A stretch of 64,000 nucleotides of DNA. Source: Candidatus Adlerbacteria bacterium. GTDB taxonomy: Bacteria > Patescibacteriota > Minisyncoccia > Phycocordibacterales > SBAW01. Under the pieces are notes generated by a model, which was not told the origin of the DNA, did not search any database, and saw nothing but the letters and a program-made list of their open reading frames with translations. The stretch is from the NCBI GenBank assembly GCA_963749085.1, contig CAVVLG010000003.1, positions 80,235 through 144,234 on the forward strand, in the 5' to 3' direction. Positions 21,448 to 47,140 of this stretch are shown piece after piece. Position 1 is the stretch's first letter, and each line of letters opens with the position of its first letter. The position numbers and the translations under genes were made by a program.

Positions 21448-24400
21448 TCAGCGGGCGCCTAGCAAACTCAATAGACCACTTAACCCATTCATGAATAGCT
21501 GAAATGGTGCCTCGATAACGGCGGCCATGAAGTTAGCCCCTCCGCCAGAGGCCTGGGACGTACTGGGATTCACAGTGATGGTTATCTGCGCGGTCGCCGA
21601 TCCTGCGCTGTTGATGGCGGTCATCGTGTAGGTCGTCGTCGTCGTGGGGCTGAAGTACGTGACGTTATAGCCGTAGGAAGCTGAATAATTGCCGACGCTG
21701 CCGATGCCATGATCGATAGAAATTGAGGTCGCATTGAGCACGTCCCAGGTGACCAGCACGGATTGTCCTGCCGCAATCGTGGCGTTGCCAGCGAAGTACA
21801 CAATGTAGGGCGTGGGGGGCATCACAACCGTAATTTGTGGACTAGTCGCCAAAACAGTACCGCTACAGTAAATGTTGCCATTTGCCAAAGTATATCCGCC
21901 TCGGCAGAGTTGCAATTGGTAGGTCCCGCCCATTGGCGGCATTGTTATAGTCATAACTGCCTGCCCAGAAGCATTCACACTCGCGGAAGAGACCGCCGGG
22001 GTAATAAACGCAGAACCAGCAGGCTCGGGGTATGGGGCTTCAACTCCGTTCGAGTTAACGACTAATATAACATCTCCCGATTGCTCATTCGGATCAACGA
22101 CAGTCGCGGTCACATAACCCTGAGGACCGACGCTTTGTGGAGACACGGAGACCGAGGGACTGGCCGGATTCACCGTCACGGTCGCAGTGGCAGTCACCGA
22201 GCCCGCGGAGTTAGTGGCGGTCAAGGTGTAGGTGGTGGTCACGGTGGGAGTGACTTGGAGGGAGGTGGCCGTGCCTTCATTGGTGCCGTTGATGAGGAAC
22301 GAGGTTGCGCCGGTGGCACTCCAGGAAAGCGTGGTGGAGTTGCCTGCCGTTATCGTGCTTGGGGAGGCGGAGAAGGAAGAGATGGTGGGGGCGCTTGGAG
22401 CGGGTGTCACCGTCACGGTCGCAGTGGCAGTCACCGAGCCCGCGGAGTTAGTGGCGGTCAAGGTGTAGGTGGTGGTCACGGTGGGAGTGACTTGGAGGGA
22501 GGTGGCCGTGCCTTCATTGGTGCCGTTGATGAGGAACGAGGTTGCGCCGGTGGCACTCCAGGAAAGCGTGGTGGAGTTGCCTGCCGTTATCGTGCTTGGG
22601 GAGGCGGAGAAGGAAGAGATGGTGGGGGCGCTTGGAGCGGGTGTCACCGTCACGGTCGCAGTGGCAGTCACCGAGCCCGCGGAGTTAGTGGCGGTCAAGG
22701 TGTAGGTGGTGGTCACGGTGGGAGTGACTTGGAGGGAGGTGGCCGTGCCTTCATTGGTGCCGTTGATGAGGAACGAGGTTGCGCCGGTGGCACTCCAGGA
22801 AAGCGTGGTGGAGTTGCCTGCCGTTATCGTGCTTGGGGAGGCGGAGAAGGAAGAGATGGTGGGGGCGCTTGGAGCGGGTGTCACCGTCACGGTCGCAGTG
22901 GCAGTCACCGAGCCCGCGGAGTTAGTGGCGGTCAAGGTGTAGGTGGTGGTCACGGTGGGAGTGACTTGGAGGGAGGTGGCCGTGCCTTCATTGGTGCCGT
23001 TGATGAGGAACGAGGTTGCGCCGGTGGCACTCCAGGAAAGCGTGGTGGAGTTGCCTGCCGTTATCGTGCTTGGGGAGGCGGAGAAGGAAGAGATGGTGGG
23101 GGCGGAGGTGGTGACACAGGTACCCCCCGAAAGTACGTAGCCAGCAGGACAGGCCACCGTCACGGTCGCAGTGGCAGTCACCGAGCCCGCGGAGTTAGTG
23201 GCGGTCAAGGTGTAGGTGGTGGTCACGGTGGGAGTGACTTGGAGGGAGGTGGCCGTGCCTTCATTGGTGCCGTTGATGAGGAACGAGGTTGCGCCGGTGG
23301 CACTCCAGGAAAGCGTGGTGGAGTTGCCTGCCGTTATCGTGCTTGGGGAGGCGGAGAAGGAAGAGATGGTGGGGGCGGAGATATTTGTAACGCTTACATT
23401 AGCCGTTGCCATGGGACTGGTTCCCTCTGGGCCGATACACTGCATGCCGGCGCTGTACGTTCCGGCGGAAGAAGGAGTTATGGAGAGCGAACCGCTCGTG
23501 GCATATGTACCGCCGTGGGAGCCGGTACAAGAGGTTGCGTTAGTCGAAGACCAAGTGAATGTAAATGAACTCCCCAGGGTGATGGAGGTCGGATTTGCCG
23601 AAACGCTCACGGTGGGTGCATTCGGGATAACAGGATTCACCGTCACGGTCGCAGTGGCAGTCACCGAGCCCGCGGAGTTAGTGGCGGTCAAGGTGTAGGT
23701 GGTGGTCACGGTGGGAGTGACTTGGAGGGAGGTGGCCGTGCCTTCATTGGTGCCGTTGATGAGGAACGAGGTTGCGCCGGTGGCACTCCAGGAAAGCGTG
23801 GTGGAGTTGCCTGCCGTTATCGTGCTTGGGGAGGCGGAGAAGGAAGAGATGGTGGGGGCGGAGGTGGTCGCGGAGGTGGTCTGCGAGGCGACACAGGTAC
23901 CGTTCAAAGGTACGGAGCTGGGAGAACAGGTCGTCGTCACAGGATTCACCGTCACGGTCGCAGTGGCAGTCACCGAGCCCGCGGAGTTAGTGGCGGTCAA
24001 GGTGTAGGTGGTGGTCACGGTGGGAGTGACTTGGAGGGAGGTGGCCGTGCCTTCATTGGTGCCGTTGATGAGGAACGAGGTTGCGCCGGTGGCACTCCAG
24101 GAAAGCGTGGTGGAGTTGCCTGCCGTTATCGTGCTTGGGGAGGCGGAGAAGGAAGAGATGGTGGGGGCGCTTGGAGCGGGTGTCACCGTCACGGTCGCAG
24201 TGGCAGTCACCGAGCCCGCGGAGTTAGTGGCGGTCAAGGTGTAGGTGGTGGTCACGGTGGGAGTGACTTGGAGGGAGGTGGCCGTGCCTTCATTGGTGCC
24301 GTTGATGAGGAACGAGGTTGCGCCGGTGGCACTCCAGGAAAGCGTGGTGGAGTTGCCTGCCGTTATCGTGCTTGGGGAGGCGGAGAAGGAAGAGATGGTG

Positions 24401-24716
24401 GGGGCGGAGGTGGTTTGTGTAAGTGTTTGCTTACTACCCGAACATGACATTGTCGCACGAGTAGCAGGACCGACGAAGCCATACCCAGTAGTATCAGGAG
24501 AACCTGAGGAGACAATGCCGTGAGATGCCTGGTAGTTTTGTATTGCCTGTTCGGTCAGAGGACCGAAGTAGCCGGTGGTGGGACTTATGCTTAAAAATGA
24601 TTGCAGTTGGGTGACTTCCCCATTAGTTGTCGCATCAGTGACTCCGGCATACAGGTTATACGACAGGTCGATGCAGGAAGGGGCAGATGCGGTGGAGACA
24701 CTAGAACCAGTCTCAA
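21448..24716 (-). pseudogene. C-terminal portion of an IS-disrupted giant cell-surface protein (PG-binding-like segment + 10 Ig-like repeats + C-terminal domain)
   Basis: The reading frame is open from the stop just inside the IS left IR; the first ATG (MSCSGSK) lies at 24450 with no signal peptide; a 'LQSFLSISPTTGYFGPLTEQAIQNYQASHG' PG_binding_1-like segment is encoded upstream of that ATG; 9 identical plus 1 variant 79-aa repeats 'APTISSFSASPSTITAGNSTTLSWSATGATSFLINGT...TYTLTATNSAGSVTATATVTV'. Confidence 0.7.
22170..24410 (-). repeat. tandem 237-bp coding repeats (at least 9 nucleotide-identical copies)
   Basis: Three alternative-frame ORFs (22232, 22469, 22706) translate to identical 78-aa strings, and five more (22943, 23216, 23699, 24008, 24245) share the same 53-residue N-terminus and sit on the same 237-nt register, so the unit is repeated with perfect or near-perfect nucleotide identity. 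Confidence 0.9.
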
Positions 24717-25153
24717 AAATAATGTTTGAGTAATAGCATGATGCACGCGAGCTTCACGAAGGCGGCAAAGTTCTGCAGTTTGTATTCGTAGCGAGTCACG
24801 AGCTTTCTCCAGTTGTGCATCCACGCGAACAGCCGCTCAATCTTCCACCGGCGCTTGTAGGAGCGCAGCGCCCTGCCGTCCTGTGTTGCTCTGCGCACCC
24901 GGCCTCTGCGATGCGGTGAAATGAGTTTGATGCGGTATTTGTTCAGGAGCGTTCCATCCAGCGGATCGGAATCATATGCTCGGTCAGCCGTGAGGCGAAG
25001 CGGATTCTGTCGGGTAAATCGCCGGGCAAGCGTGTCTTCAACCAACCGGACTTCGCTCGGAGAAGCAGAGGCCACATAGACGGCGACTGGAAGAGAGCCT
25101 TCGTCCGCAATCGCCATGATCTTGGTGCCTTTCCCACGCTTCGTGGGTCCCAC
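24713..25153 (-). CDS. IS5-family transposase OrfB (DDE catalytic part, -1 frame)
   Basis: '...LTADRAYDSD...YKRRWKIERLFAWMHNWRKLVTRYEYK' DDE_Tnp_1 C-terminal signature; begins just downstream of the slippery site. Confidence 0.75.
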   Translation of the reverse strand: MGPTKRGKGTKIMAIADEGSLPVAVYVASASPSEVRLVEDTLARRFTRQNPLRLTADRAYDSDPLDGTLLNKYRIKLISPHRRGRVRRATQDGRALRSYKRRWKIERLFAWMHNWRKLVTRYEYKLQNFAAFVKLACIMLLLKHYF

Positions 25154-25485
25154 GCCAAGACCCCCTTTTTTGCCCCCGCGAAGGTGGCATCGAGAAAGCA
25201 GCTCCTGAGCTTGATGCGCCCCCGGTATTCCATGTCCATGGCCAGGGCTTCGACGATGCGGTCAAAGGCGCCGCTCTCCACCCACTGCTGGAACCTGCGA
25301 TGGCAGGTCTGGTAGGGCGGGTAGTCTTTCGGCAGGTGCTTCCACTGGGCGCCGGTCTTCAGTGCCCAGAGGATACCTTCCAGTATCTTGCGGTCGTCCT
25401 GCCGGGGACGGCCGCGGGTTTCCAAACGCTTGAGGGGTGTGACAAACGGAGCGATGACGCTCCACTGCTCGTTGGTGAGAGGCAT
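24943..25485 (-). CDS. IS5-family transposase OrfA (N-terminal DUF4096-type region)
   Basis: 'MPLTNEQWSVIAPFVTPLKR...RKILEGILWALKTGAQWKHLPKDYPPYQTCHRRFQQWVESGAF', the typical IS427/IS1031-group N-terminus; contains 'GAKKG' = GGG GCA AAA AAG GGG slippery heptamer. Confidence 0.75.
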   Translation of the reverse strand: MPLTNEQWSVIAPFVTPLKRLETRGRPRQDDRKILEGILWALKTGAQWKHLPKDYPPYQTCHRRFQQWVESGAFDRIVEALAMDMEYRGRIKLRSCFLDATFAGAKKGVLAWDPRSVGKAPRSWRLRTKALFQSPSMWPLLLRAKSGWLKTRLPGDLPDRIRFASRLTEHMIPIRWMERS

Positions 25486-25518
25486 GGGCAGGCAAATTAC
25501 GGGTAACGCCCTGTGCCT

Positions 25519-26124
25519 TTAGTCTACAACGGTATTTTTGAGATTGGTTCTAGTAGTGGTGGGTGCGGTGGTGGGAGTTTGGGTTGTGGTTTGGGTGGGC
25601 GCGGTGGATGTAGTAGGGACAGTAGGCGCAGTGGTGGACGTGGTAAGAGGAGCTTCAGTTCCCGCGCACACCCTGGCAATAACAGGACGAGTCAGTCCCC
25701 CCACAATACCGTACGCGGGTAATCCATACGTTTGCTGGAACTGGATTACATAGCTCTGCGTCAAGTGACCAAAGTAACCGCTTACGAGGTCATTGGGGTT
25801 GACATTATAGTAATCTGCAAGGAATTTCTGAAGCTCACTCACCTGACCTTGGGGATTAGTGTTGGAATCGGTAGCCCCTCTTGAGAGGGTCTGCGAAAGT
25901 TGCGGGCAATAGTAACCGTTATTAATGGTACCGTTTCCAAAGTCATCTGGTGTGGCTTGGGCGAGCACTACCGCAGCCGGCTGAGGTGAACTCGTTTGCG
26001 TGAGAAAAGTGCTTGTCGTAACTCCGGCAACTGCTATGCCGGTCATCATAAAAAAAGCGGCCACAAATAGGCCGAGATAGGCCGAGGATGCAGCAAACAA
26101 ATTAGCGAATTCGTGATCTTTCAT
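25519..26124 (-). pseudogene. N-terminal fragment of the IS-disrupted surface protein (signal/TM anchor + PG_binding_1 domain + Thr/Pro linker)
   Basis: 'MKDHEFANLFAASSAYLGLFVAAFFMMTGIAVAG' TM/signal; 'QVSELQKFLADYYNVNPNDLVSGYFGHLTQSYVIQFQQTYGLPAYGIVGGLTRPV' peptidoglycan-binding fold; ORF runs through the CTAG duplication into the IS IR and stops 9 codons later. Confidence 0.7.
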
Positions 26125-26815: not shown

Positions 26816-28147
26816 ATGGACACATCAACAATAACGCTGCGTAAGCCCCAAGCGGGCAATCGGCAAGAAGTTAAGCAGGTGCAAGTGCGGTACTGCCTGT
26901 ATGCAAGAAAGAGTACCGAGTCAGAGGAACGCCAAGTATTAAGCATTGACTCCCAAATCAAGGAGATGATGCAGATGGCGGAGCGGGAGAATCTAGAAAT
27001 CGTCGAGATAAAGCGCGAGAGCCACTCGGCCAAGGAGACCGGCCAGCGGCCCATCTTCAACGAGATAGTAGATAACCTGCGTGCCAATAAATACAACGGT
27101 ATATTAACGTGGGCACCGGATCGCATCAGTAGAAACGCCGGTGACTTAGGTTGCATTGTCGACCTCATGGACGCGGGCAAGCTGCATGAGATACGCACGT
27201 TCAGCCAGCGATTTAGCAATAACCCGAATGAAAAGTTCCTCCTAACAATTCTGGGTGGTCAGGCAAAACTTGAAAACGATAACCGAGGCATCAATGTAAA
27301 GCGCGGACTACGCGCTCGCTGCGAGATGGGCCTGTGGCCCGGGTACCCGCCGCTAGGTTACCTTAACCAAAAGCGCATGGATAAGAAATGCCAGCTCATC
27401 GTGGACCCCTTGCGTGCGCCCGTGGTAAAGCAGATATTCGAAAAGGTGGCACATGAGAAGTGGAGTGGCAGACAGGTATACAACTGGCTCAAGTTCAAGC
27501 TCAACTTCTACACGCGCGGAAACAAGCCGCTCACACTCTCGGGTGTGTATCGTATCCTCGATAATCGGTTCTACTACGGGCTCTTCGAGTACCCAAGAAA
27601 AAGCGACAACTGGTACCAGGGGCAACATACGCCGCTAATCAATCAGGAATTATGGGAGAAGGCGCAGGCGCAGCTGACGCGGGACAACATTGTCAGAGAG
27701 AACAAGGAATTCTCCTTCACCAAGCTATTCACGTGCGGGTATTGCGGAAGTGGTATCAGCGCCGAAGAGAAGTGGAAGCCACTCAAGGACGGTACCTCGG
27801 CGCACTACATCTACTATGGCTGCACGCGTGCCAAGGATCGGAACTGCAAAAACAAGTACATACGAGAGGAGGAGTTGATTGAGGAGCTGCTGAAAATCCT
27901 CGATCAAATCAACCTCAATGAGTTGGGTGTTCGCCACAAGATGGAGGACGAGATACGCCGGTTCAACAAGCTGCAGAAAATCGTGAGCGGGACGTCAGCC
28001 ACCACGTTAGTCGAGGACGACGACATCAACATACGCCGCTACGCCAAATACCTGCTCAAGGAAGGGAGCGTTTCTGACAAGCGGGAGCTCTTGGCGAACA
28101 TGCGAAGTAGATTGCTATATAAGGATAAAACGATTACGTTCGCCTAA
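26816..28147 (+). CDS. large serine recombinase (copy 1)
   Basis: Resolvase catalytic N-domain ('YARKSTESEERQVLSIDSQ', catalytic Ser context), recombinase domain and a C-terminal Zn ribbon 'CGYCGS...YYGCTRAKDRNCKNKY'; 443 aa. Confidence 0.85.
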   Translation: MDTSTITLRKPQAGNRQEVKQVQVRYCLYARKSTESEERQVLSIDSQIKEMMQMAERENLEIVEIKRESHSAKETGQRPIFNEIVDNLRANKYNGILTWAPDRISRNAGDLGCIVDLMDAGKLHEIRTFSQRFSNNPNEKFLLTILGGQAKLENDNRGINVKRGLRARCEMGLWPGYPPLGYLNQKRMDKKCQLIVDPLRAPVVKQIFEKVAHEKWSGRQVYNWLKFKLNFYTRGNKPLTLSGVYRILDNRFYYGLFEYPRKSDNWYQGQHTPLINQELWEKAQAQLTRDNIVRENKEFSFTKLFTCGYCGSGISAEEKWKPLKDGTSAHYIYYGCTRAKDRNCKNKYIREEELIEELLKILDQINLNELGVRHKMEDEIRRFNKLQKIVSGTSATTLVEDDDINIRRYAKYLLKEGSVSDKRELLANMRSRLLYKDKTITFA

Positions 28148-28259
28148 CGAAAATGCGGCCACCATGCCGCTCTTTTCGTTCAACTTTTTGTGCTGAGCAT
28201 TGCGGGTCGCACTGACACATCGACATTGCGGGAACACGCCGATACAAAGTTGTCAATGC

Positions 28260-28345
28260 GGAGAGGGTGAGATTCGAACTCACGGTAGGGTTTCCCCCAC
28301 GCCGCATTTCGAGTGCGGTGCCTTCGACCACTCAGCCACCTCTCC
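28260..28345 (-). tRNA. tRNA-Ser (anticodon CGA)
   Basis: Class II tRNA fold by hand: acceptor GGAGAGG/CCTCTCC, anticodon loop CUCGAAA, long variable arm, T-arm GAGTTCGAATCTC; 3' end faces the recombinase gene. Confidence 0.75.
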
Positions 28346-33440: not shown

Positions 33441-33508
33441 GGGCGATACCGTACTGACTTCGATGGGGGCCGGTATCGGTTCCCTGCGCCACAGCGCTGT
33501 GCCCCCGG
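33441..33508 (+). repeat. 68-bp direct repeat, copy A (followed by a 22-bp partial second unit)
   Basis: gggcgataccgtactgacttcgatgggggccggtatcggttccctgcgccacagcgctgtgcccccgg is identical to 46984..47051; it contains an 8-bp IR (cgataccg/cggtatcg) and the 12-bp palindrome cacagcgctgtg. Confidence 0.85.
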
Positions 33509-36565: not shown

Positions 36566-39500
36566 CTATTTGGTGCCAGGTGTCGATGCACTCATTTGAG
36601 AGGAAAATAGGTTTGAATTGTAGGTGTTGATGGCTTTTACAGCCGCAGCAAAACTAGGATCAGCCAAGTTAGCACCAGTGGTATTCGCATAATTGATAAC
36701 TGCGCCAGAAAGTTGGCTAATATTACTACCTCCAGAACCAGAGGAAGGATTGGGGGAAGAACCTACGAAGCTTTGGAATTGGGAAATGACGTTACCAATA
36801 AAGCCAAGACTAAACGGTGACGCTTTGTATAGAACGGCATCGGTAGCCCCGGCATAGGCACCAAATGCGGGCACAACGTTGCCGACCGGTAATGCCGATT
36901 TAAGTTTAAATTTGCCGTCTTGCCAAGTCAGAGGCGCTTCGGACGAATAGCTTGCACCCACACCTGCGGCAGCTCCTGCTGAGACTTGGAAGTAAAGGCC
37001 CGCAGGATCCAATGACCCATTGGGGTCATACGTGCCTGAAACACGAGCACCTATGCCAGGCCCTATTGTGGGACCGTAACTGAATTGTCCTAGCCAAGAA
37101 TTTGTATCAATATCAAAGTTCGCTACCCCTCCGCCAAATATATACCCGGCATTTATGCTTCCCTCAAGAACACCGAGCCCTTGCGGATCACTAGTCGTTG
37201 TAGGATTATCCCTACTATAACTATACGCATTCAGCTGTTGTGGATCTGCTAGTAACTGATATTGGCTCTGGTCTAGAAGCTGCCCAACTTGATTTGGATT
37301 GCCGAGAGACAAAAATACAGGATCTTCCGAAAGGAACTGCCCCCTACTCCCGTCATAGTACCTCGCGTTCAGATAATCGAGACCAGTGTCATTGTCATAC
37401 ACCTGACCCACATACTTGCGCAGTGATGAGTAGCCCGCTAATTGGTCGTGGTTGCTAATGGATCCGTAGGGGGTGTAGTCGGTGACCTCCTGCACGTGGT
37501 TGTTAGAATCTGCGGTGACAGAGGCGGAGTTGAGTGTGTCGACGTAGTTGTAGTTGATAATCCCGCTTCCCGTAGCGCCGGTTATGTCAGCAACATCTTG
37601 ATTATTAAGGAAGATGTGCTTGGTGGGGAGCATTGAGACACTGTCGGTATTATAGTAGTCGTTGGGATAATAATAGGTGGTGCTTGCGGTGCCCACTCTT
37701 ACCCGATTGTCATTCTCATCGTAAGTGTAGGTGTCAGTGCCTGCCGTCGTGGTTGAGATGCTGAGGCGGTTGCGCCAATCCCAAGCACCTTGGAAGCCCG
37801 AGAGTCCTTGAGTGACGTTACCATTATTATCATACGTAATGGTGGTCTGGCCTACCTGCGTAGGGGCGTCTGGGTTGGCATAGCTAGAGCCTGTATTGCC
37901 TTGGTAGAGGTAGGTAGTAGTGGCGAATGTCCCGCCGAGTGTGGAGGAGGCGTCGGTGAGTACGTTACCTAAGGCGTCATAGGTCCACTGCTCGATTGTG
38001 TTGCGGCCAGCATTGGGCGCACCAGAGGAGATGTCAGGAGTAGTAGATGCCTGTATGAGTCTATTAAGACCATCGTAGGTGTAATCGACCACTTTGGCAG
38101 TTTTAGTGAAGGACGCATCGACAAGGTATGTGATATTTCCATTGGCATCATAAGTATAGGAGAGATCCTGTACACGGTTTCCCGGAGTCATGAAATAGTC
38201 GTTACCGTTGGACCAGGGAGACGGATTGTTATTTTGATCCCAGACTCTAATGCGCCAGAAATATTTGTTGGCATCGGTTCCGTTCGAAGGCAGCGTAGGT
38301 CCTGCATACGTTGATGTCGCCGTTCTTTGACCATTTTGCGTTTGCGGCGACAGAGTTACTTCGCCCGAATCCCATAAAGGAGTTGCCCAACTTCCTCCTC
38401 TTTGGATTACCTGAATTTCATAGGCTGAAGCTGTTGATGTGCCGGACGAATCATAGATGCCATTGAAGTACGGAGGAGGTGCCGTAACTTTGGTGTTTTG
38501 CTCCGCAAAGAAGTGGAAATTGTCGAACCACACATGACCGGTCGTTGTCCCTAGATCGAAATCGAAACGTCCATCTACATCTCCCGCATTTGGCGTAAGC
38601 GTAATTACGTAGTGATTCCAATTGGGATATAGATTGAAAGGGGTGAAGGGTGTAAATTGATTGTTAGGAGAGTGATTTTGATCGAGAACAACATCCGCAC
38701 TCCTTTGAGAGGTTGATTTGGCATCAAAGGCTAGTATGTACGTGGTACCAGTCGCCAGTGCCTGCTGTTGCCAAAACTGCACGTACCAATTTGTACTGGT
38801 AGCCTGGAGAACATTTATATTCGCCGAACAGCTCCCGTTGGTCGATGTAGTGCAATCCGTGCTTTCAGTCGCCTCCGAAGAGCCGTTATCTGTCCAGAAA
38901 CCATAGCCATAGTTGTTTCCTGTGGGATCGGAGATATTTTCAAACGATGGATTACGCACTGTAGAAAGACTATCAGGAATAAGTTCGACATCATCCAGCC
39001 AATACGTTGCACTATTAACCGCCCCGAGCGAAAATATCAGTCGTGAGTTTAGGTCAGTCGTCGTCGCGGTCGAGCTAAAGTAGTACGAGTACTGTTTCCA
39101 GTTTGGCGTGACGGTAGGGTTCACGTCGAGCCCGTAGCTTAGATATTGCCCGCTATTTTGCTGTAACGTTGCTTCGATAGTCGTCGTGGCCGATGCTTTT
39201 GCGCTGAATTCCAAAGTGTAATTGACGTTGGGATCGACGCGAAGCAGCTGTAGGAGTTGTGGTAAATAGTTGACACTTGTCGAAGCAACAACAATTTTAT
39301 CTGAGCAGGCACCAGTGAAGGCAGTTGTGCAGTCGATAGAACTGCTTGAAATACTTGAACCTTCATTAAACACCCAACTTGTGGAAGAGGCGTACTCAAA
39401 TGAGTCGTCGTAGGTTACCGAATTTGAGAACCAATAACCATCGGTATTGAGATTTGTTGAAGCAAATGGAGGAGTGGGGCCTGTTGAGGATGCGGCGTTG

Positions 39501-42500
39501 GCAAAAGTTTGCGTGATAAAGCCCATGGCATTGCCTACCGCAGTGCCCCAAGCTCCCGAATCTGGGAGGAGTGTCACTTTGTGCGTTAATCGATACAGGT
39601 GGTTCGCATCATAGGTATCGGTAGTAGTAGCACCACTGCCCCACAAAATGGTAGCCTCCTGGCCGAGCGGAGAGTAAAAAACATTTGAGACAACCGTACG
39701 CCATGGCGATGACGTTGCCTCGCGCTGCTGTATTTCTTGAACCAACCCTTGAGGACCTAGCGTGTATAACACCTCGGACTGGTCGGGATATACGATGTCG
39801 GTCTGATCGCCCTGTCGGTCGTAGGAATATGACGTGGTGTATGTTTGTCCCGCAATCTGTTTTACTTCTTGTGCAGGCTTCCCCAGAGGATTGTAGCTGT
39901 CGGTCGTTACAATAGTTGCATTCGCAGTTGTGGTTGCGATACAAATCAAGCCTATACCGTTTGAACAAGAATCATACTTATACGTTACCGAGTTTGCGCT
40001 GGCGGGCATGTAAGTAATTACGATGATACCCTGACCTCCCGTGCCCGCAGCACCGCCTACGTGCGTTGCCCCGCCTCCGCCTCCTCCACCTCCGCCTCCG
40101 CCGTACGTGCCGCCGTTTCCACCCGCTGAGCCGACTGCATCTCCTGTCGCGGACGCACCGCCGCCTCCGCCTCCGCTCGAACCATGAGACGCATCAAATT
40201 CTGTTCCGATGCCGCCAGCACACCCGACTGTTGCTGGAGTATTGTTTTGCCCCCCACCTCCACCACCGCCATTGGTACCGGCGGTGCATCCGGAACCACT
40301 GTCACCATTGCCGTGTCCTGTTCCGCTTGAATTGTTTCCGCCATTTGCTCCGTTACCTGTGCCTCCAGTACCATTCCCCGCCGTACCGCCGCCATTACCT
40401 CCTCCACCCGGCCCGGCCCCGCCAGTAGTATTTGCGCCTCCTTGCGCTCCCGCTCCGTTGGACCCTCCAGCACCGCCTCCCGCAGTTGGAGCCGCATGAG
40501 CGGCATACGTACCACCGGCTCCCCCCGCATATGTTGTCGAGCCTATAGACTGCGAAGTTAGACCTCCTACGCCAGAGGAGGTAGTACCGTTCCCCGCACG
40601 CCCCCATGAGCATGACAAAGAAGCGGTCGAGGAGGCGGTGCCGTTGAAATACGTTTCTCGAGCTTGCCCGACGGCAGTTGTCACTGACGTGGTTGTAGCA
40701 TCAGCTCCAATTGCGTAGGTTATGTTCCCTCCTGGCGTGAGAGATAGATTAGTGATCTTTGCATAGGCACCTCCACCTCCTGCGGCTCCACCCGCGCCTC
40801 CGTCGGCGACGCCTGCCGCGCCTTCGCCTCCTGATCCAACGCACTGGATAGTGTTGTTCGACGAGTTCCAGTTTGAGGGTACGTTCCAGGTCTGATTGCC
40901 TTTACCCGGATTAACGGTGAGGAAGATGACGGTGGCACCGCTTCCTCCGGTTCCTTCGGTCAACTCGCGATTGAGCGCATCATAAGTGTAGGTAGTTGTT
41001 TTGCCGTTGGGGTCAACTTTTTGCGTCACGTTGCCCGCAAGGTCATAGGTATAGGTCGTCGTGCCAAAAGTAGTGTCCGTCGCGACGTGAAGGTCCTGTG
41101 CCGTGAGTTGGCGATTGAGACCGTCATACGTGAAATTGCGGATATTGCCGCTGGCATCCGTCACTTCCGTGAGGTTATTTTTCAGATCGTATGCATATGT
41201 GGTCGTAGCGGACGTGGTGGTGGTGCTATGTTCAACCACATTGACCAGATTGCCGAACGCGTCATTCCAAAAATCCTTAAGATTGCCGTTAGGGTCCGTG
41301 ACCATGGTATGCCACGGATTATACACATAGGTTGTCGAACCGACCGCGTTATCGACGGAAGCGATTCTCTCCAATGGATCGTAGGTATAGCTGGTAAAGA
41401 GCGCGGTCGTTGTCGTAGGTGCCGCCCAAGACGTGCTTGAGGCAAAATATTGGAGGGATTCATCCACCAGCAAGCCGGAAGCACCGTACACATCATCTTT
41501 CACGGCATAGGTATTGGTTGGAGCCGCCTCCGTGCGCGTTTGTATGGTGCGGCCGAGACCATCAAAGTATTGGTATGAGACCGTGCTGGTTGCGGAGTTG
41601 AGATAGGAGGTCGTCGTGGTGTAAGTCGGGAAACCCGTGTCGGTATATGCGATAGTTGTATTCAAGTCAAGTGTGCTGGGCGTATTGAGGTCAGGCTGCA
41701 ACTTCTCACTAACGCGCCCGACCGGATCGTACACGGTGACATGCGTGAGCCCGTTGGGATCGGTCGTGGTCGCCACATTGCCAGTCCCATAATCGTACAT
41801 ATAACTAGTGGATTGGTTGAGCGCATTGGTCGAAGTGGCAGGGTAATAATTGAAACTGTCGAATGAATAGCTGGTTTGATTACCGTTAGGGTCAGTGCTG
41901 CTCGCCACAAGGCCGTAGGAGTTATATGACTTCGTCTTGCTCGCATAGGTACTTCCTGTAATCCAATCCTCCTCCTTAGTCTGATTTCCGAGTGATACAG
42001 ACCCCAGCGGTAGGCCGTCGTAGTAATACTGGGTTTCTGAAAGCTGAGTGCTACTCGCATTGGTAAGTATAATGTCGTCTTGCAGATCCAGCGTCGAGCT
42101 TGCATTGGTCGCATAGGTAATATTTTTGATGCTCTCATCATTGCTGCTGATAGTGGTGTACGTGCCATTGGAGCTGCCGTTTACTTGACCCAGATCCTCA
42201 ACCTGCGCGAGATCCCCTGTAGTGGTGGAGTACGTGTATTGAATGGCATGATCCATGTGATTGCTACCGCTGGGATCAAAATCCTGCGTCATTTGGTTAG
42301 CGAGAAAGACGAAATACCCGGTAGACGCGGTGGTTGAGGGAGTGGTGGTGGACGTAGTCCAGTCGTAGAAGGTGCGCTTCAGCAGCGTCCCGCTGGGAGT
42401 TTCGGTGTCTTCACGGAACACACGCCCAATTTGGGCATAGCTATCGCTCTGCTCGCCGTCGCCGGTCGTTACGCCGTTGCCTTGGTTGTAATAGGTGACC

Positions 42501-45172
42501 GTGGTGAAGTCGGGATGTGTCTCCTTTATAGTGTAGAAGCTTGCGAACTTCCTGTCCTGCGGAGCGTTCGCGTTGAAGTACAGAACGCCGCCATTGTAGG
42601 AATAATCGACTTCGGTGGTATTGTCGTCGTTATCACTGGTGAGGGTTTTTGACACCAATAGAAGCGAGAGTGGCAAATTGGGATTATTGCTCGTCTGGGG
42701 CGACGGAACATATGAGATCTGCTCGTTACCACCTTTGGGATAATTAATTTGCGTCAGTACGTCCTGGCGCGAAGCGTTGTTTATTTCATCGACATTGTCC
42801 GGCAACCCATCGCCGTTCCAATCGACATATTCGTTATCTATCTCAGTATCATACTGATTGTATTGAACGATGTAGGAAGGAAGCTGTATTGAACTCGTGG
42901 CCCACCCCGAGCCGGTATTAAGCCACACAATATCGATCCCATTCGAGACCGGCGCATTGCCGTGCACTCCACCGACAATCGGACTGTAATATGATTCGAC
43001 GAGATCCGGCAATCCATCGCCAGTGAGGTCTATAAACCGAAGACCGCGATCAAAGTATTGATGGCTGCCGCTGTTGTAATAATAGGTGGACGTGGCGATG
43101 TTCCAAGGCGAATTGCACGATCCCGCCGGGATCCATCCGGTCCCAGTATTCATACAGACATACGTATTGTTAGCATCCGAATACACCCAATCATCAAGGC
43201 CGTCGCCGTTGATATCAACGAGCTGGGAGTCCGTAACCGTACCACCAGCCGCGTCTGGAAACGGTTCCACTGCCGTAAAATCACCACTGGGGGTCCATGC
43301 GCTGCCGTTGCCCATATAGCTTGTACTCGCCGTAATACCTGAACCTGAAGGCAATGCTTCGACATAACCAGGGTATCCGTTCCCATCGAGATTTCCAAAC
43401 ATACCCGATGTGTAGGTTATGCCCGAGCCGGAATTGTAAAGGCCGAAGGGAGGGATGACCCCGTTTAACGTCGAAGAGGCGAGCACCGTAAAGGTGTAAT
43501 CGCCGTTAGTTCCTGACGTATTTTCGTATAGTGCCGCGCCATCCAGACCCTGATCATTATGCACGACATCCGCATAGCCGTCGCCGCTGACATCAACGAA
43601 TCTCGTGCCGCTTTCAACCGGAGTCTGCGTGCTACCAAGACAGGCCCACGTGTACGAAGGAGGCTCGCTGACGGCCGTGTTGTCTATATATAACTGCCCA
43701 GGACCTCCGCAGGAAGCATAGCCGGATATTGCCGTATCGTTTACGCCATCGCCATGCGATTGGGCTGCGATGTTAGATTGGTTTGCAGCATATCCAAAAT
43801 TATTTTGAAACGTCCATGTCACTGATGTGCTGGCATACTGGAACGTCGTCGCCGGAAGAGTCAGTTGGTTACCGTTGGCATCCTCGCCAGTTTCTTGGAC
43901 GCCAGAGAGAAGCGACCGATACCCATTATTTCCCGTCGTATATGAAAGAACATATTTGCGCACTAAATTGCCATTCACCTTTGCGTCAATCTCTGTGATG
44001 CGATAATTGGTTGTCACTTCAAAGGTCGGCCGGTAATCGATGAACGAGTCGGGACGGGTTGAAGTAGCAAACGTTATACTCATCACGCCCGTGGTTGTTC
44101 CGTTTCCGGTATACGTTATCTGGAAAGGATAAATCTGATCGTCGTTCTTGGCGTAGGTGTATGAGATGTCATTGCCGTTCGTATCCACAACCTGTTCAAG
44201 CATCCAGGTATATATCTGCGTTGAGCTGGCGGCATCAAACTGCTGTGCTTGGGTCGTGGTGCCGTATTCGTAGCGGGTGCCATCCTTGTCATAGGCGGTC
44301 CACGTGTCGTTTGAGAATACGTATTTGACGAAGCTGCCGTCATTGACACGCGCGATATACGTGCTCGAGTTGGAGGATGTGGCTAAAAGGGTTAATTCTC
44401 CGTCTTTAGAGGAGGTAAAATAGTTGTCCGTATAGAGCCTATCAGTACCCGTTTTATTAAGCCTCTGTATGTAGGGGATGGAGAGCGACCAGCCGTATCC
44501 AACCAGACTGTTGTCTTGCAGGTTTTGGCTGTTGTAATTGAGGGAGAAATCGGGCTGTAAGCCGTTGCGGCCGGGCGGAATATCGAGCGGTATGTTTTCC
44601 GTCAACGCGCCGCTCGTCTTGTCCACTTGAGGAGCAATAGTTTGATATGTGAATAGATATGGATTCGTAACTGTCGGTGGAGAACTACCACCGCTAGGAG
44701 GTGGAGGACCCGGAGGTTGGCTTGCTGGAGTGCTGGGAGTCGTTGGGCTGCTAGGGGCGGGCGTCGTTGGGTTACTCGGATTACTACCATTATTCGTATC
44801 ACTGTTATCAGTAGAGCTATTGTCGGTAGGACTTGTATCCACACTGGGCGTCGTGGCGTTATCCGCGCTGGGCGTCGCCTGATCGGATGAATCGCTCGGT
44901 TGTTGCGTCGATGCTCCTAATATATCGCCCAGTGGGGTGACTTTCGGCGTATCGGGCGTAGTATTTGCATCTGTCGATTGATCCGAGGACTGTGAAGAAT
45001 CAAAAGTTGCGGAAGCGTCAGTACCTGAGGAGGTGGAGCTCGGGTCCGTTATTGATGTCTGTGCATCCGCTGAAGGAGTGTCAGTCGCGCTCTGGGCAAA
45101 TATAGTGCTCACCGGAGAGAGCAATAAAGTTGCAAGCGTAAAGCCTGCGATAAGTTTTCTCACCGCCCACAT
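36566..45172 (-). CDS. giant Rhs/YD-repeat polymorphic toxin, TcB-TcC-fusion-like (SpvB + FG-GAP propeller + YD shell with Gly-rich insert, 2 CBM4_9-like and an FN3-like module + C-terminal toxin)
   Basis: Signal peptide 'MWAVRKLIAGFTLATLLLSPVSTIFA|QSA'; SpvB-type 'DFSLNYNSQNLQDNSLVGYGWSLSIP'; FG-GAP 'DVSGDGYADVV/DINGDGLDDWV/DLTGDGLPDLV'; many YD repeats (e.g. 'TYTYDLAGNVTQKVDPNGKTTTYTYDALNRE'); Rhs core end 'ARYYDGSRGQFLSEDP...NAYSYSRDNPTTTSDPQGL'. Confidence 0.85.
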   Translation of the reverse strand: MWAVRKLIAGFTLATLLLSPVSTIFAQSATDTPSADAQTSITDPSSTSSGTDASATFDSSQSSDQSTDANTTPDTPKVTPLGDILGASTQQPSDSSDQATPSADNATTPSVDTSPTDNSSTDNSDTNNGSNPSNPTTPAPSSPTTPSTPASQPPGPPPPSGGSSPPTVTNPYLFTYQTIAPQVDKTSGALTENIPLDIPPGRNGLQPDFSLNYNSQNLQDNSLVGYGWSLSIPYIQRLNKTGTDRLYTDNYFTSSKDGELTLLATSSNSSTYIARVNDGSFVKYVFSNDTWTAYDKDGTRYEYGTTTQAQQFDAASSTQIYTWMLEQVVDTNGNDISYTYAKNDDQIYPFQITYTGNGTTTGVMSITFATSTRPDSFIDYRPTFEVTTNYRITEIDAKVNGNLVRKYVLSYTTGNNGYRSLLSGVQETGEDANGNQLTLPATTFQYASTSVTWTFQNNFGYAANQSNIAAQSHGDGVNDTAISGYASCGGPGQLYIDNTAVSEPPSYTWACLGSTQTPVESGTRFVDVSGDGYADVVHNDQGLDGAALYENTSGTNGDYTFTVLASSTLNGVIPPFGLYNSGSGITYTSGMFGNLDGNGYPGYVEALPSGSGITASTSYMGNGSAWTPSGDFTAVEPFPDAAGGTVTDSQLVDINGDGLDDWVYSDANNTYVCMNTGTGWIPAGSCNSPWNIATSTYYYNSGSHQYFDRGLRFIDLTGDGLPDLVESYYSPIVGGVHGNAPVSNGIDIVWLNTGSGWATSSIQLPSYIVQYNQYDTEIDNEYVDWNGDGLPDNVDEINNASRQDVLTQINYPKGGNEQISYVPSPQTSNNPNLPLSLLLVSKTLTSDNDDNTTEVDYSYNGGVLYFNANAPQDRKFASFYTIKETHPDFTTVTYYNQGNGVTTGDGEQSDSYAQIGRVFREDTETPSGTLLKRTFYDWTTSTTTPSTTASTGYFVFLANQMTQDFDPSGSNHMDHAIQYTYSTTTGDLAQVEDLGQVNGSSNGTYTTISSNDESIKNITYATNASSTLDLQDDIILTNASSTQLSETQYYYDGLPLGSVSLGNQTKEEDWITGSTYASKTKSYNSYGLVASSTDPNGNQTSYSFDSFNYYPATSTNALNQSTSYMYDYGTGNVATTTDPNGLTHVTVYDPVGRVSEKLQPDLNTPSTLDLNTTIAYTDTGFPTYTTTTSYLNSATSTVSYQYFDGLGRTIQTRTEAAPTNTYAVKDDVYGASGLLVDESLQYFASSTSWAAPTTTTALFTSYTYDPLERIASVDNAVGSTTYVYNPWHTMVTDPNGNLKDFWNDAFGNLVNVVEHSTTTTSATTTYAYDLKNNLTEVTDASGNIRNFTYDGLNRQLTAQDLHVATDTTFGTTTYTYDLAGNVTQKVDPNGKTTTYTYDALNRELTEGTGGSGATVIFLTVNPGKGNQTWNVPSNWNSSNNTIQCVGSGGEGAAGVADGGAGGAAGGGGAYAKITNLSLTPGGNITYAIGADATTTSVTTAVGQARETYFNGTASSTASLSCSWGRAGNGTTSSGVGGLTSQSIGSTTYAGGAGGTYAAHAAPTAGGGAGGSNGAGAQGGANTTGGAGPGGGGNGGGTAGNGTGGTGNGANGGNNSSGTGHGNGDSGSGCTAGTNGGGGGGGQNNTPATVGCAGGIGTEFDASHGSSGGGGGGASATGDAVGSAGGNGGTYGGGGGGGGGGGATHVGGAAGTGGQGIIVITYMPASANSVTYKYDSCSNGIGLICIATTTANATIVTTDSYNPLGKPAQEVKQIAGQTYTTSYSYDRQGDQTDIVYPDQSEVLYTLGPQGLVQEIQQREATSSPWRTVVSNVFYSPLGQEATILWGSGATTTDTYDANHLYRLTHKVTLLPDSGAWGTAVGNAMGFITQTFANAASSTGPTPPFASTNLNTDGYWFSNSVTYDDSFEYASSTSWVFNEGSSISSSSIDCTTAFTGACSDKIVVASTSVNYLPQLLQLLRVDPNVNYTLEFSAKASATTTIEATLQQNSGQYLSYGLDVNPTVTPNWKQYSYYFSSTATTTDLNSRLIFSLGAVNSATYWLDDVELIPDSLSTVRNPSFENISDPTGNNYGYGFWTDNGSSEATESTDCTTSTNGSCSANINVLQATSTNWYVQFWQQQALATGTTYILAFDAKSTSQRSADVVLDQNHSPNNQFTPFTPFNLYPNWNHYVITLTPNAGDVDGRFDFDLGTTTGHVWFDNFHFFAEQNTKVTAPPPYFNGIYDSSGTSTASAYEIQVIQRGGSWATPLWDSGEVTLSPQTQNGQRTATSTYAGPTLPSNGTDANKYFWRIRVWDQNNNPSPWSNGNDYFMTPGNRVQDLSYTYDANGNITYLVDASFTKTAKVVDYTYDGLNRLIQASTTPDISSGAPNAGRNTIEQWTYDALGNVLTDASSTLGGTFATTTYLYQGNTGSSYANPDAPTQVGQTTITYDNNGNVTQGLSGFQGAWDWRNRLSISTTTAGTDTYTYDENDNRVRVGTASTTYYYPNDYYNTDSVSMLPTKHIFLNNQDVADITGATGSGIINYNYVDTLNSASVTADSNNHVQEVTDYTPYGSISNHDQLAGYSSLRKYVGQVYDNDTGLDYLNARYYDGSRGQFLSEDPVFLSLGNPNQVGQLLDQSQYQLLADPQQLNAYSYSRDNPTTTSDPQGLGVLEGSINAGYIFGGGVANFDIDTNSWLGQFSYGPTIGPGIGARVSGTYDPNGSLDPAGLYFQVSAGAAAGVGASYSSEAPLTWQDGKFKLKSALPVGNVVPAFGAYAGATDAVLYKASPFSLGFIGNVISQFQSFVGSSPNPSSGSGGSNISQLSGAVINYANTTGANLADPSFAAAVKAINTYNSNLFSSQMSASTPGTK

Positions 45173-45585
45173 TTTTCTTTCCCACAAAAAATGAGGTGCC
45201 CTGCTCATAAAATTTTGCCCTGCCAAAAAACATATACCGGAGACCCAATGGTAACAGGGAAAACGAAACAGCAAGGAAATCTCTCCGGATTTTTATTTCA
45301 CCACTGAACTATTTTCCTGTTATTAAGCCACACATGAGACTAGGTGCGCAAATCTCGGCAAAGCGACATATGAAGTTTTTATGCAAACAAGTTTTCATAT
45401 CTCGGATTTCCGAACAGAGCAAAATAATAGTGCTTGATAATTTTCAAATCTGACGCGTTTATTAAAAAATTATCCACAGATCGCTATTACAAGTTACCAA
45501 CTAGGGGACCGGAATGGGGTCTGGACTCACAGCGGGTGTTGCGTCATTCATTGACCTTGCAGATTAGCAAGTAACCACAAGGTAT

Positions 45586-46923
45586 ATGAATATGACGTTT
45601 GAGGGTACCGCAGGGGTATTAGGGACAAAGCCGGAAATTAAGGAGACAGTGCGGGTGTGCTACTGCCTGTATGCTCGGAAGTCGACCGAACAAGACGAGG
45701 TGCAAGCGCTCTCTATCGAGTCGCAGGTCAAGGAGATGACTGCGCTCGCCACGCGGGACGGCTTGGAGATCGTTGAAATAAAACGGGAGTCGCACTCGGC
45801 GAAGGAGACCAATCAGCGGCCAGTCTTCAACGAGATGCTCGAGGAGATACGAGTGGGTACATATAATGGAATACTGACATGGGCAGCGGATCGCATCAGC
45901 AGAAACGCCGGGGACTTGGGCAAGGTCGTAGACCTCATGGATGCAGGGCTGCTCCATGGCATACAAACGTACAGTCAGAAATTCTCGAATAATCCGAACG
46001 AGAAATTCTTGTTGATGATCCTGTGCAGCCAGGCGAAGCTCGAAAACGACAACAAGCGGATTAACGTAAAGAGGGGCCTGCGCGCTCGGGCGGAGATGGG
46101 TATGCTGCCGGGATGGGCACCCATTGGATATCTCAACGACACGCGCAAGGACCACAGGTGCGAATATCTGTTGGACCCGCTTCGAGCGCCGGTGGTGAGG
46201 ATGATATTCGAGAAGGTTGCCAAAGAACGCTGGAGCGGGCTTAAGATATACCACTGGCTCAAGGAGGATCTAAAATTCACGACCCGCAGCGGTAAGAACC
46301 TCAATATCAGCACCCTCTATGAGATGTTGAAAAATCCCTTCTACTGCGGAGTGTTCGAGTACCCCCGCAAGAGCGGCAATTGGTACGTGGGCAAGCATGA
46401 GCCCCTCATCACAAGAGAGCTGTTTGAGCAGGTGCGGCAGAAAATCGTCGAGGAGACGGAGCCGCGTAAGCGCTCCAACGAATTCGCCTTTGTCCGCATG
46501 ATGACGTGTGGGGACTGCGGCTCCAGCATCACGGCATTCGAGAAGGATAAATTCATCAAGGGAACTGGGGAGACGCGCACGTACCGCTATTATGCGTGCT
46601 GTCGGTCGAAGGACCGCCATTGCAAGAGCCTCTATGTACGCGAGGACGCTATGATGGAGCAGCTCATCGGCATCATCGACGAGGTGGAAATAGACCAGCT
46701 GGGTGCCCGGCATCTTATCGACAGAGAGATTGTTCGCTTCAACAAACTACAGTCGAAGGTACTTGGCAGCAAGGAAAAAGAGAAGGTGCGCGACATAGAC
46801 GTGCGGCGCTACGCGAAGTACCTGCTTGAGGAAGGGACGACTGAAGAGAAGCGCGAGCTGCTCGGACAGCTGCGCGGCAGGATTGTGCTGAAGGATAAAC
46901 AGATATCAATCGCGAAGGCCTAG
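45586..46923 (+). CDS. large serine recombinase (copy 2, paralog of 26816..28147)
   Basis: 445 aa with the same three-domain layout; Zn ribbon 'CGDCGS...YYACCRSKDRHCKSLY'; colinear with copy 1 and judged by eye about 60% identical. Confidence 0.85.
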   Translation: MNMTFEGTAGVLGTKPEIKETVRVCYCLYARKSTEQDEVQALSIESQVKEMTALATRDGLEIVEIKRESHSAKETNQRPVFNEMLEEIRVGTYNGILTWAADRISRNAGDLGKVVDLMDAGLLHGIQTYSQKFSNNPNEKFLLMILCSQAKLENDNKRINVKRGLRARAEMGMLPGWAPIGYLNDTRKDHRCEYLLDPLRAPVVRMIFEKVAKERWSGLKIYHWLKEDLKFTTRSGKNLNISTLYEMLKNPFYCGVFEYPRKSGNWYVGKHEPLITRELFEQVRQKIVEETEPRKRSNEFAFVRMMTCGDCGSSITAFEKDKFIKGTGETRTYRYYACCRSKDRHCKSLYVREDAMMEQLIGIIDEVEIDQLGARHLIDREIVRFNKLQSKVLGSKEKEKVRDIDVRRYAKYLLEEGTTEEKRELLGQLRGRIVLKDKQISIAKA

Positions 46924-46983: not shown

Positions 46984-47051
46984 GGGCGATACCGTACTGA
47001 CTTCGATGGGGGCCGGTATCGGTTCCCTGCGCCACAGCGCTGTGCCCCCGG
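46984..47051 (+). repeat. 68-bp direct repeat, copy B
   Basis: Identical to 33441..33508; starts 61 bp after the recombinase stop. Confidence 0.85.
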
Positions 47052-47140
47052 CAGGAATTGCACCCACATTGACCCCTTAGGACGGGGCGGTTCTATCTGT
47101 TGAACTACGGGGGCTATAAACGCCACCACTGTAGCACACG

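Follow-up and report, generated by a model that had tools for sequence, protein, structure and literature searches.

The described class closest to the protein treated here is that of the Periscope Proteins, to which SasG, Rib / alpha C protein, Sgo_0707 and CdrA belong (Whelan et al. 2021, PMC8201768; review PMC9704523). They are single-chain envelope proteins with a tandem stalk of folded, mostly immunoglobulin (Ig)-like domains of very high DNA identity. Both the definition of the class and its mechanism of length variation, in-frame recombination, are given in these two publications (PMC8201768, PMC9704523). Repeat number is variable also in the inverse autotransporters (PMC9704523). We detected a gene of comparable design in a 64,000-nucleotide (nt) stretch of DNA, hereafter the window, from a Candidatus Adlerbacteria bacterium (assembly GCA_963749085.1, contig CAVVLG010000003.1, positions 80,235 to 144,234 of the forward strand). 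The host is a Patescibacterium (Paceibacterota / 'Ca. Adlerbacteria'-like), and the array of letter-identical repeats probably encodes the stalk of one of its envelope proteins, a large and modular one, whose units would be kept identical by recombination.

The array gene lies on the minus strand, where only one long open reading frame (ORF), of 1000 amino acids (aa), runs through the region; the coordinates of its parts are collected in Table 1. A first reading of the letters without database searches, called here the sequence-only reading, had marked 22170-24410 as a highly repeated segment, and so it is. It contains eight copies of a block of 222 nt (74 aa), and direct comparison found 0 mismatches across 8 x 222 nt, that is, 1776 nt without one change. 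An array of this kind cannot have arisen by chance. The 74-aa unit quoted in the sequence-only reading was exact, its listed linkers (TPAPS, NPVTTTCSPSS... and ACPAGYVLSGGTCVTTS) were all correct, and the nucleotide identity that it claimed for the copies holds. Its count of nine identical repeats has to be reduced to eight, the ninth and tenth modules of the family being divergent (45% and 49% aa identity to the unit); one of these two is the insert that it had noticed within the array, and the other lies at the C-terminal end. The repeat length of 237 bp which it gave is a period (unit plus 15-nt TPAPS linker) found at four of the seven spacings, not the length of the identical block, and the single 237-nt register on which it had set all units does not exist: the start-to-start spacings are 237, 237, 237, 273, 483, 309 and 237 nt. 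Every one of them is divisible by 3.

Four junctions are made by TPAPS; in the remaining three stand a Cys linker of 29 aa, a segment of 87 aa that holds the divergent module, and a Cys linker of 17 aa. The edges of the units are sharp, and copies with different linkers share at most 9 nt past the edge on the 5′ side or at most 8 nt on the 3′ side. By direct comparison, perfect tandem identity that includes the linker extends over 22171-23103 (four units) and 23947-24405 (two units). Tandem Repeats Finder reported the 237-nt period over 22170-23860 with 6.9 copies and just 77% matches, because the linkers are heterogeneous, and gave rows of 100% for 22882-23380, which comprises two units with their intervening Cys linker, and for 23946-24406. 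Elsewhere in the window the unit sequence is absent, and the sole extra match is a weak divergent copy (tblastn 1.7e-05). Two long Gly/Arg-rich ORFs also cross the array on the plus strand (22081-23568, 495 aa, and 23722-24447, 241 aa). We rejected them as genes, since they are antisense by-products of a stop-poor GC-rich repeat and bring a risk of mis-calling. The 78-aa 'alternative-frame ORFs' of the plus strand, from which the repeat had been argued at first, are antisense artefacts as well.

If the units are identical to the letter, then we can ask: What has happened to the sequences between them? The 29-aa and 17-aa Cys linkers are homologous, with 38 of 51 aligned nt identical (~75%), and differ in length. 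Such diverged linkers beside units that are 100% identical point to a homogenisation confined to the units, alongside recent duplication, which agrees with the recent expansion or ongoing homogenisation proposed in the sequence-only reading. The two runs in which the TPAPS linkers are identical as well have the appearance of fresh products of unequal crossing-over. According to the mechanism which we propose, intragenic homologous recombination would hold the eight modules letter-identical by two routes. Unequal crossing-over would have made the TPAPS-linked runs, and gene conversion would homogenise the units separated by older diverged linkers, its tracts stopping at the domain borders because homology stops there. 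The two divergent modules would have escaped after drifting under the identity needed for recombination. Since all spacings are multiples of 3, recombination from unit to unit would give a longer or shorter protein in frame, which is the 'Periscope Protein' mechanism of length variation.

In both long linkers two cysteines bracket a ten-residue stretch (CSPSSVPLNGTC and CPAGYVLSGGTC), and this C-x10-C motif is possibly a small disulfide hairpin placed between Ig modules. The units differ from their surroundings also in codon usage. Their GC content at third codon positions (GC3) is 0.81, versus 0.48-0.59 elsewhere in this gene and 0.53-0.64 in its neighbours, and 56 of 68 codons end in G or C where 40.9 are expected from the amino-acid composition (z = 3.8). 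This shift could come from GC-biased conversion or from a foreign origin of the unit. As a general rule, GC-biased conversion was not supported, because the identical units of a related protein from another genome (P0111, described below) have ordinary GC3.

The next level of analysis was the fold and the family of the unit. With an alignment of 50 sequences as input, AlphaFold2 (AF2) predicted an all-β structure of eight β-strands (predicted local distance difference test, pLDDT, 95.4; predicted template modelling score, pTM, 0.81), and the folded part of the model coincides with the identical block. The best Foldseek matches in the PDB were I-set Ig domains of titin and obscurin (query-normalised TM-score, TMq, 0.67-0.71), together with an archaeal S-layer PKD domain. 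A sequence profile run against the PDB gave one full-length match only, the Ig-like decoration protein of phage Bas63 (9ncf_S). The titin-type I-set domains and 9ncf_S are similar to the unit in fold, but their sequence identity to it is only ~20%. Adjacent titin domains are typically 30-40% identical to each other (PMC9704523), in contrast to the 100% of the array units.

The Ig-like fold expected by the sequence-only reading is thus supported by the model, while the profile search of one unit that it had suggested stayed below the thresholds of Pfam. For a single unit I-set (PF07679) reached 21.7 bits against a gathering threshold of 23.7, on the last 29 residues only; for the whole ORF it reached 85.1 bits, summed from weak matches with no individually significant stretch. 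The scores of PKD (PF00801) on unit, divergent module and tail lay between 11.3 and 16.9 bits, below its threshold of 23.5. No Pfam stalk or adhesive family passed the threshold on a single module or on the tail, and PG_binding_1 was the only family recognised. These models support a unit that is Ig-like at the level of fold, but not its membership of a curated Pfam family. A protein search returned 822 matches, all at domain level, from many phyla including Patescibacteria (best match, 50% identity over 16% of the query). At least two units were present in 118 of the 119 top proteins carrying the domain, and the median identity within one protein in the best-scoring arrays was typically ~50-75%.

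The 1000-aa ORF is a fragment, a fact overlooked in the sequence-only reading. An insertion sequence (IS) divides the gene, and this element can be assigned to the IS5 family from its transposase and its inverted repeats. The pattern of the inverted repeats occurs twice, against 0 occurrences expected by chance. The two ORFs of the element, joined at an A7G slippery run, match DUF4096 and DDE_Tnp_1 in Pfam. With the NCBIfam model transpos_IS5_3 (NF033580) orfB scores 114.6 (cut-off 110) and orfA 101.9, and jointly they cover the model (positions 5-104 and 119-258). CTAG stands at both ends of the element; it is palindromic, hence a target duplication is indistinguishable from the repeat ends. 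The upstream ORF as annotated (25519-26124) reads on into the IS and terminates there. It carries the first PG_binding_1 domain (Pfam 3.2e-10), and the Kyte-Doolittle maximum of the N-terminal part is 2.22 at residues 6-42. On the other side of the element no Shine-Dalgarno-like sequence is visible by direct reading before the ATG of the 1000-aa ORF. Removal of the IS in silico restored a continuous ORF (1273-1275 aa, free of internal stops), whether or not one CTAG was taken out with it.

The intact gene (~1275 aa) would thus encode an N-terminal membrane anchor, then two peptidoglycan (PG)-binding domains parted by a Thr/Pro-rich linker, and then an Ig-like stalk. This stalk would have ten Ig-like β-sandwich modules, eight of them identical, with an orphan β-rich domain between the eighth unit and the last divergent module, and would end in a C-terminal helix. 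The IS5-family element would have been inserted into the Thr/Pro linker. Because of this interruption the 1000-aa ORF has neither signal nor anchor, and therefore the array protein is probably not exported at present in this genome, its anchor being parted from the array. The arrangement suggests an allele that was recently inactivated or switched off and is currently inactive. The idea of a surface protein, put forward in the sequence-only reading, is accordingly plausible only for the protein with its true N-terminus, that is, with the hydrophobic anchor and two PG_binding_1 domains, and not for the 1000-aa ORF alone.

Table 1. Parts of the array gene and of the element that interrupts it (positions in the 64,000-nt window)
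Feature	Position	Strand	Remarks
Native 5′ part of gene	25555-26124	minus	hydrophobic anchor (aa ~8-34), first PG_binding_1, Thr/Pro-rich linker
IS5-family element (assigned by sequence)	24700-25554	minus	855 bp; cuts the gene in two
IS terminal inverted repeats	24700-24726, 25528-25554		27 nt each; 89% complementary
IS orfA	24943-25485	minus	joined to orfB at the A7G slippery run
IS orfB	24713-25153	minus	joined to orfA at the A7G slippery run
In-frame coding sequence 5′ of the annotated ATG	24451-24699	minus	second PG_binding_1 (4.8e-08); no stops
1000-aa ORF (3′ gene fragment)	21448-24450	minus	no signal peptide of its own
Unit 1	24184-24405	minus	222 nt, 74 aa; 0 mismatches to other units
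TPAPS linker, units 1-2	24169-24183	minus	15 nt
Unit 2	23947-24168	minus	identical block
29-aa Cys linker	23860-23946	minus	NPVTTTCSPSSVPLNGTCVASQTTSATTS; C-x10-C motif
Unit 3	23638-23859	minus	identical block
87-aa spacer with divergent Ig-like module	23377-23637 (module ~23389-23619)	minus	45% aa identity to unit
Unit 4	23155-23376	minus	identical block
17-aa Cys linker	23104-23154	minus	ACPAGYVLSGGTCVTTS; C-x10-C motif
Units 5-8	22882-23103, 22645-22866, 22408-22629, 22171-22392	minus	three TPAPS linkers; perfect 237-nt tandem run
Orphan 121-aa β-rich domain	21808-22170	minus	after the array; no close homologues
C-terminal divergent Ig-like module	21556-21807	minus	49% aa identity to unit; weak PKD match
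Predicted C-terminal helix, ~28 aa	21454-21537	minus	ANFMAAVIEAPFQLFMNGLSGLLSLLGAR; helical in AF2 (tail residues 212-239, pLDDT 66-73)

The region behind the last unit gave few matches. The 121-aa domain had none in a word-index protein search, and HMMER against 1.84 billion representatives produced five weak ones, to repeats of proteins in which cadherin or prealbumin-like domains prevail. For the whole 240-aa tail, single-sequence AF2 reached a pLDDT of 47.8, too low for a fold search. NCBIfam gave no family of any kind for the tail, hence no sorting-signal model. The predicted C-terminal helix has a Kyte-Doolittle value <1.4, which is too little hydrophobicity for a transmembrane segment. 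An amphipathic C-terminal helix of ~25 aa straight after the last Ig-like module recurs in P0111, P0080, P0100 and P0117, proteins with PG_binding_1 and Ig arrays from Patescibacteria-like genomes (examples ...AAVIEAPFQLFMNGLSGLLSLL..., ...LLASVGAGIAELIQTLNNLL... and ...IASALSALTSLVQQLQQML...). The helix may be an unrecognised motif of anchoring or oligomerisation.

How does the locus compare with the described systems? With the Periscope Proteins the array protein shares identical DNA repeats in one polypeptide, a repeat that by AF2 prediction folds independently, and several linkers that are short and proline-rich; in-frame recombination should allow its repeat number to change as well. In the stalk, which may be rod-like, four linkers are TPAPS (5 aa, Pro-rich), and the other three of the seven junctions hold long heterogeneous inserts of 17, 29 and 87 aa, unlike in that class. 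The tether is different too. Periscope Proteins have a C-terminal LPXTG, while the reconstructed array gene has an N-terminal hydrophobic segment and two PG_binding_1 domains, now separated from the array by the IS. At the distal end, where a ligand-binding head is expected, we recognised none, and the tail holds the orphan β-rich domain without a family match. Other differences are the interruption by the IS, the uncultured patescibacterial host, and a length variation that is here only predicted. Taken together, the Periscope Proteins are the closest described class.

Other systems are more distant. A fibrillar adhesin-like protein is defined by a known stalk, a known adhesive domain and an anchor (PMC8286594), and by Pfam the array protein does not come under this definition, as the anchor-type PG_binding_1 was the only one of these parts recognised. 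Inverse autotransporters (intimin/invasin, with BIg repeats) resemble the array protein in polarity: the anchor, which includes a peptidoglycan-binding element, is N-terminal, the Ig-like repeats form the stalk, and the C-terminal region is distal. However, they have an outer-membrane β-barrel translocator, which the array protein does not, and by Pfam its domain is neither Big_1 nor Big_2. Patescibacteria are thought to lack an outer membrane.

Similar in plan are two proteins encoded on one 687-kb contig of the Candidate Phyla Radiation (CPR), P0111 and P0080 (ERZ25039521 contig_1614). They have a signal/anchor, PG_binding_1, an array of the same Ig-like family and a C-terminal helix. In P0111 (L002 10613-11323) three 74-aa units that follow PG_binding_1 are nucleotide-identical with a period of 79 codons (237 nt). 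In contrast to our gene there are just three identical units, no IS and no GC3 shift; a β-helix-like C-terminal region of ~490 aa replaces the orphan tail, and overall identity is 33%. In P0080, the paralogue on the same contig, the units are at most 85% identical to one another.

Several other explanations of the array have to be weighed against a stalk homogenised by recombination. All eight units may stem from one very recent burst of duplication with no gene conversion, and the runs of units 1-2 and 5-8, identical through their linkers too, are what fresh tandem duplication would give. Yet units 2/3 and 4/5 are parted by the Cys linkers, which are homologous but diverged and of different lengths, and units 3/4 by an old divergent module. 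A duplication recent enough for 1776 unchanged nt should not leave co-duplicated linkers ~25% diverged, and the independent insertion of linkers into a young array, possible in itself, is less parsimonious. We consider amplification alone unlikely. Another explanation is that the perfection of the array was created by consensus polishing or repeat resolution, the real units being similar rather than identical, or wrong in number or order. The window has the look of a metagenomic CPR sequence, the unit count of the four-unit TPAPS run is beyond the reach of short reads, and tandem repeats are a documented source of assembly errors (PMC6868369). On the other hand, the frame stays open over 3 kb, and the junctions of units with linkers, five different ones, stand in coherent order. 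An independent assembly also speaks against an artefact: a short-read Logan contig (run ERR12036785) is 100% identical over 2670 nt to window positions 19526-22195, reproduces the junction of tail and unit, and ends 25 nt inside unit 8. The junctions read AATCCG on the tail side and AATCCT on the side of the NPV linker. As 5 nt are common to both, a de Bruijn graph of 31-mers (k = 31 is the Logan setting) must branch at exactly 25 nt, so that the break is the one expected for a multi-copy unit. The failure of short-read assembly at the array, which the sequence-only reading had foreseen, is in this way visible in real data. Finally, nucleotide-identical units are present in an unrelated CPR assembly, that of P0111. 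An artefact of assembly or polishing is in our opinion improbable.

The position of the gene brings a third explanation, namely that its product serves the type IV pilus as a dedicated component or accessory, e.g., a wall-spanning or pilus-associated adhesin. Located on the same strand, with pilM 130 nt downstream of it, the gene heads the complete cluster of pilM, pilN, pilO, pilB, pilT, pilC, pilins and prepilin peptidase (pilD), and PG-binding domains would fit a wall-associated part of such a machine. The organism falls in the Patescibacteria by its PilM homologues, which come from MAGs (metagenome-assembled genomes) of the Paceibacterota / 'Ca. Adlerbacteria' type, with a best identity of 86%. 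Among these relatives the linkage is not conserved. In 38 of them (PilM identity 41-86%) the ORF upstream of pilM has no such domains, a six-frame search with hidden Markov models found units near pilM in just one of 44 loci, tblastn of the whole protein found nothing in any of the 44, and tblastx synteny stops exactly at the pilM start. We rejected an operon component on these grounds and regard a pilus role as very improbable. Because synteny is lost upstream of pilM, the array gene belongs to a segment specific to the lineage, with pilM on one side and a large serine recombinase with tRNA-Ser on the other.

The stalk homogenised by recombination remains the reading that we prefer, and a number of points weigh against it. 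The copy number and perfect identity rest on one assembly, and repeats that are nearly identical can be homogenised by consensus polishing. Of the seven linkers, three are long instead of short and rigid. At the distal end no recognisable adhesive domain was found by Pfam, NCBIfam, word-index search, HMMER or AF2. With the IS present the protein is possibly not made at all in this genome, and the GC3 shift of the unit could mean its recent import followed by amplification. No orthologue or second strain was found, so that length variation, the property which defines the class, is here inferred only. When proteins were looked up by their exact sequence, PilM alone gave a contig; for the 1000-aa ORF, the N-terminal ORF of 201 aa, the recombinase and PilB there was no match. 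A scan of JGI metagenomes with the unique tail returned no relatives, and the exact DNA of the unit was absent from metagenome_contigs and viral_contigs. Literature searches for the Candidate Phyla Radiation with fibrillar adhesins and for accession ERR12036785 found no paper, and a search that combined Patescibacteria with repeat and surface-protein terms found none mentioning Patescibacteria.

It remains to describe the surroundings of the gene. Around the segment with the array gene, the serine recombinase and tRNA-Ser we found no bounding direct repeats of att type, and between the array gene and the recombinase no convincing inverted repeats of an invertible promoter; a scan for promoters and terminators was uninformative. 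The window contains two paralogous large serine recombinases (26816-28147 and 45586-46923; 58% identity) located 19 kb apart. Each is divergent to a neighbouring gene for a big secreted protein, and behind each lies a tRNA gene of the opposite strand, tRNA-Ser (28258-28345) for the first and tRNA-Arg (47042-47114) for the second. In the locus of one relative (P0107, L003) a 440-aa serine recombinase lies ~4 kb upstream. A perfect 68-nt direct repeat (33441-33508 and 46984-47051) flanks a 13.6-kb segment; 10 nt of the right copy belong also to the 3′ end of tRNA-Arg(cct) (47042-47114, minus strand). This segment contains four unannotated ORFs, a giant SpvB/RHS/FG-GAP protein of 2902 aa (36566-45274) and the second recombinase, and it resembles an integrated mobile island with a toxin of Rhs type. 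Within the pilus cluster, pilM and pilN are separated by a 193-aa ORF (19628-20209) with a weak GDPD N-terminal match; relatives have a different insert at this place or none. The cluster of pilin genes also includes a 466-aa protein (11582-12982) that combines RTX calcium-binding repeats with a domain of MBG_2, the family to which the repeats of the periscope protein CdrA belong (PMC8201768).

For annotation and assembly the array gene is real and useful as a warning, and it is unsurprising to a specialist. If the IS is overlooked, automated annotation would label the 1000-aa fragment cytoplasmic. Genes of this type are systematically broken or collapsed in short-read MAGs, as the Logan contig that ends at the array illustrates, and CPR surface proteomes are therefore probably under-counted. 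The design of this gene includes a different anchor, a membrane segment plus PG_binding_1, and an Ig-like family not yet modelled by Pfam.

A further step would be to see in this protein a length-tunable host-contact stalk of an episymbiotic CPR bacterium, in which domain-precise concerted evolution (perhaps through GC-biased conversion) is combined with recombination that resets the distance between symbiont and host, and in which insertion and excision of the IS in the anchor linker act as an on/off switch. We offer this as a speculative and rather doubtful possibility. If true, it would extend the periscope principle to Patescibacteria, with an inverted anchor based on PG_binding_1 that recurs in the phylum (P0111, P0080, P0100, P0117). 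Most surface proteins with identical repeats known so far come from pathogens that were cultured and sequenced with long reads. Patescibacteria, most of which have not been grown in culture, have a surface biology about which little is known. That they carry a gene of this design suggests that ultra-small bacteria dependent on a host, too, vary the length of their envelope proteins rapidly.

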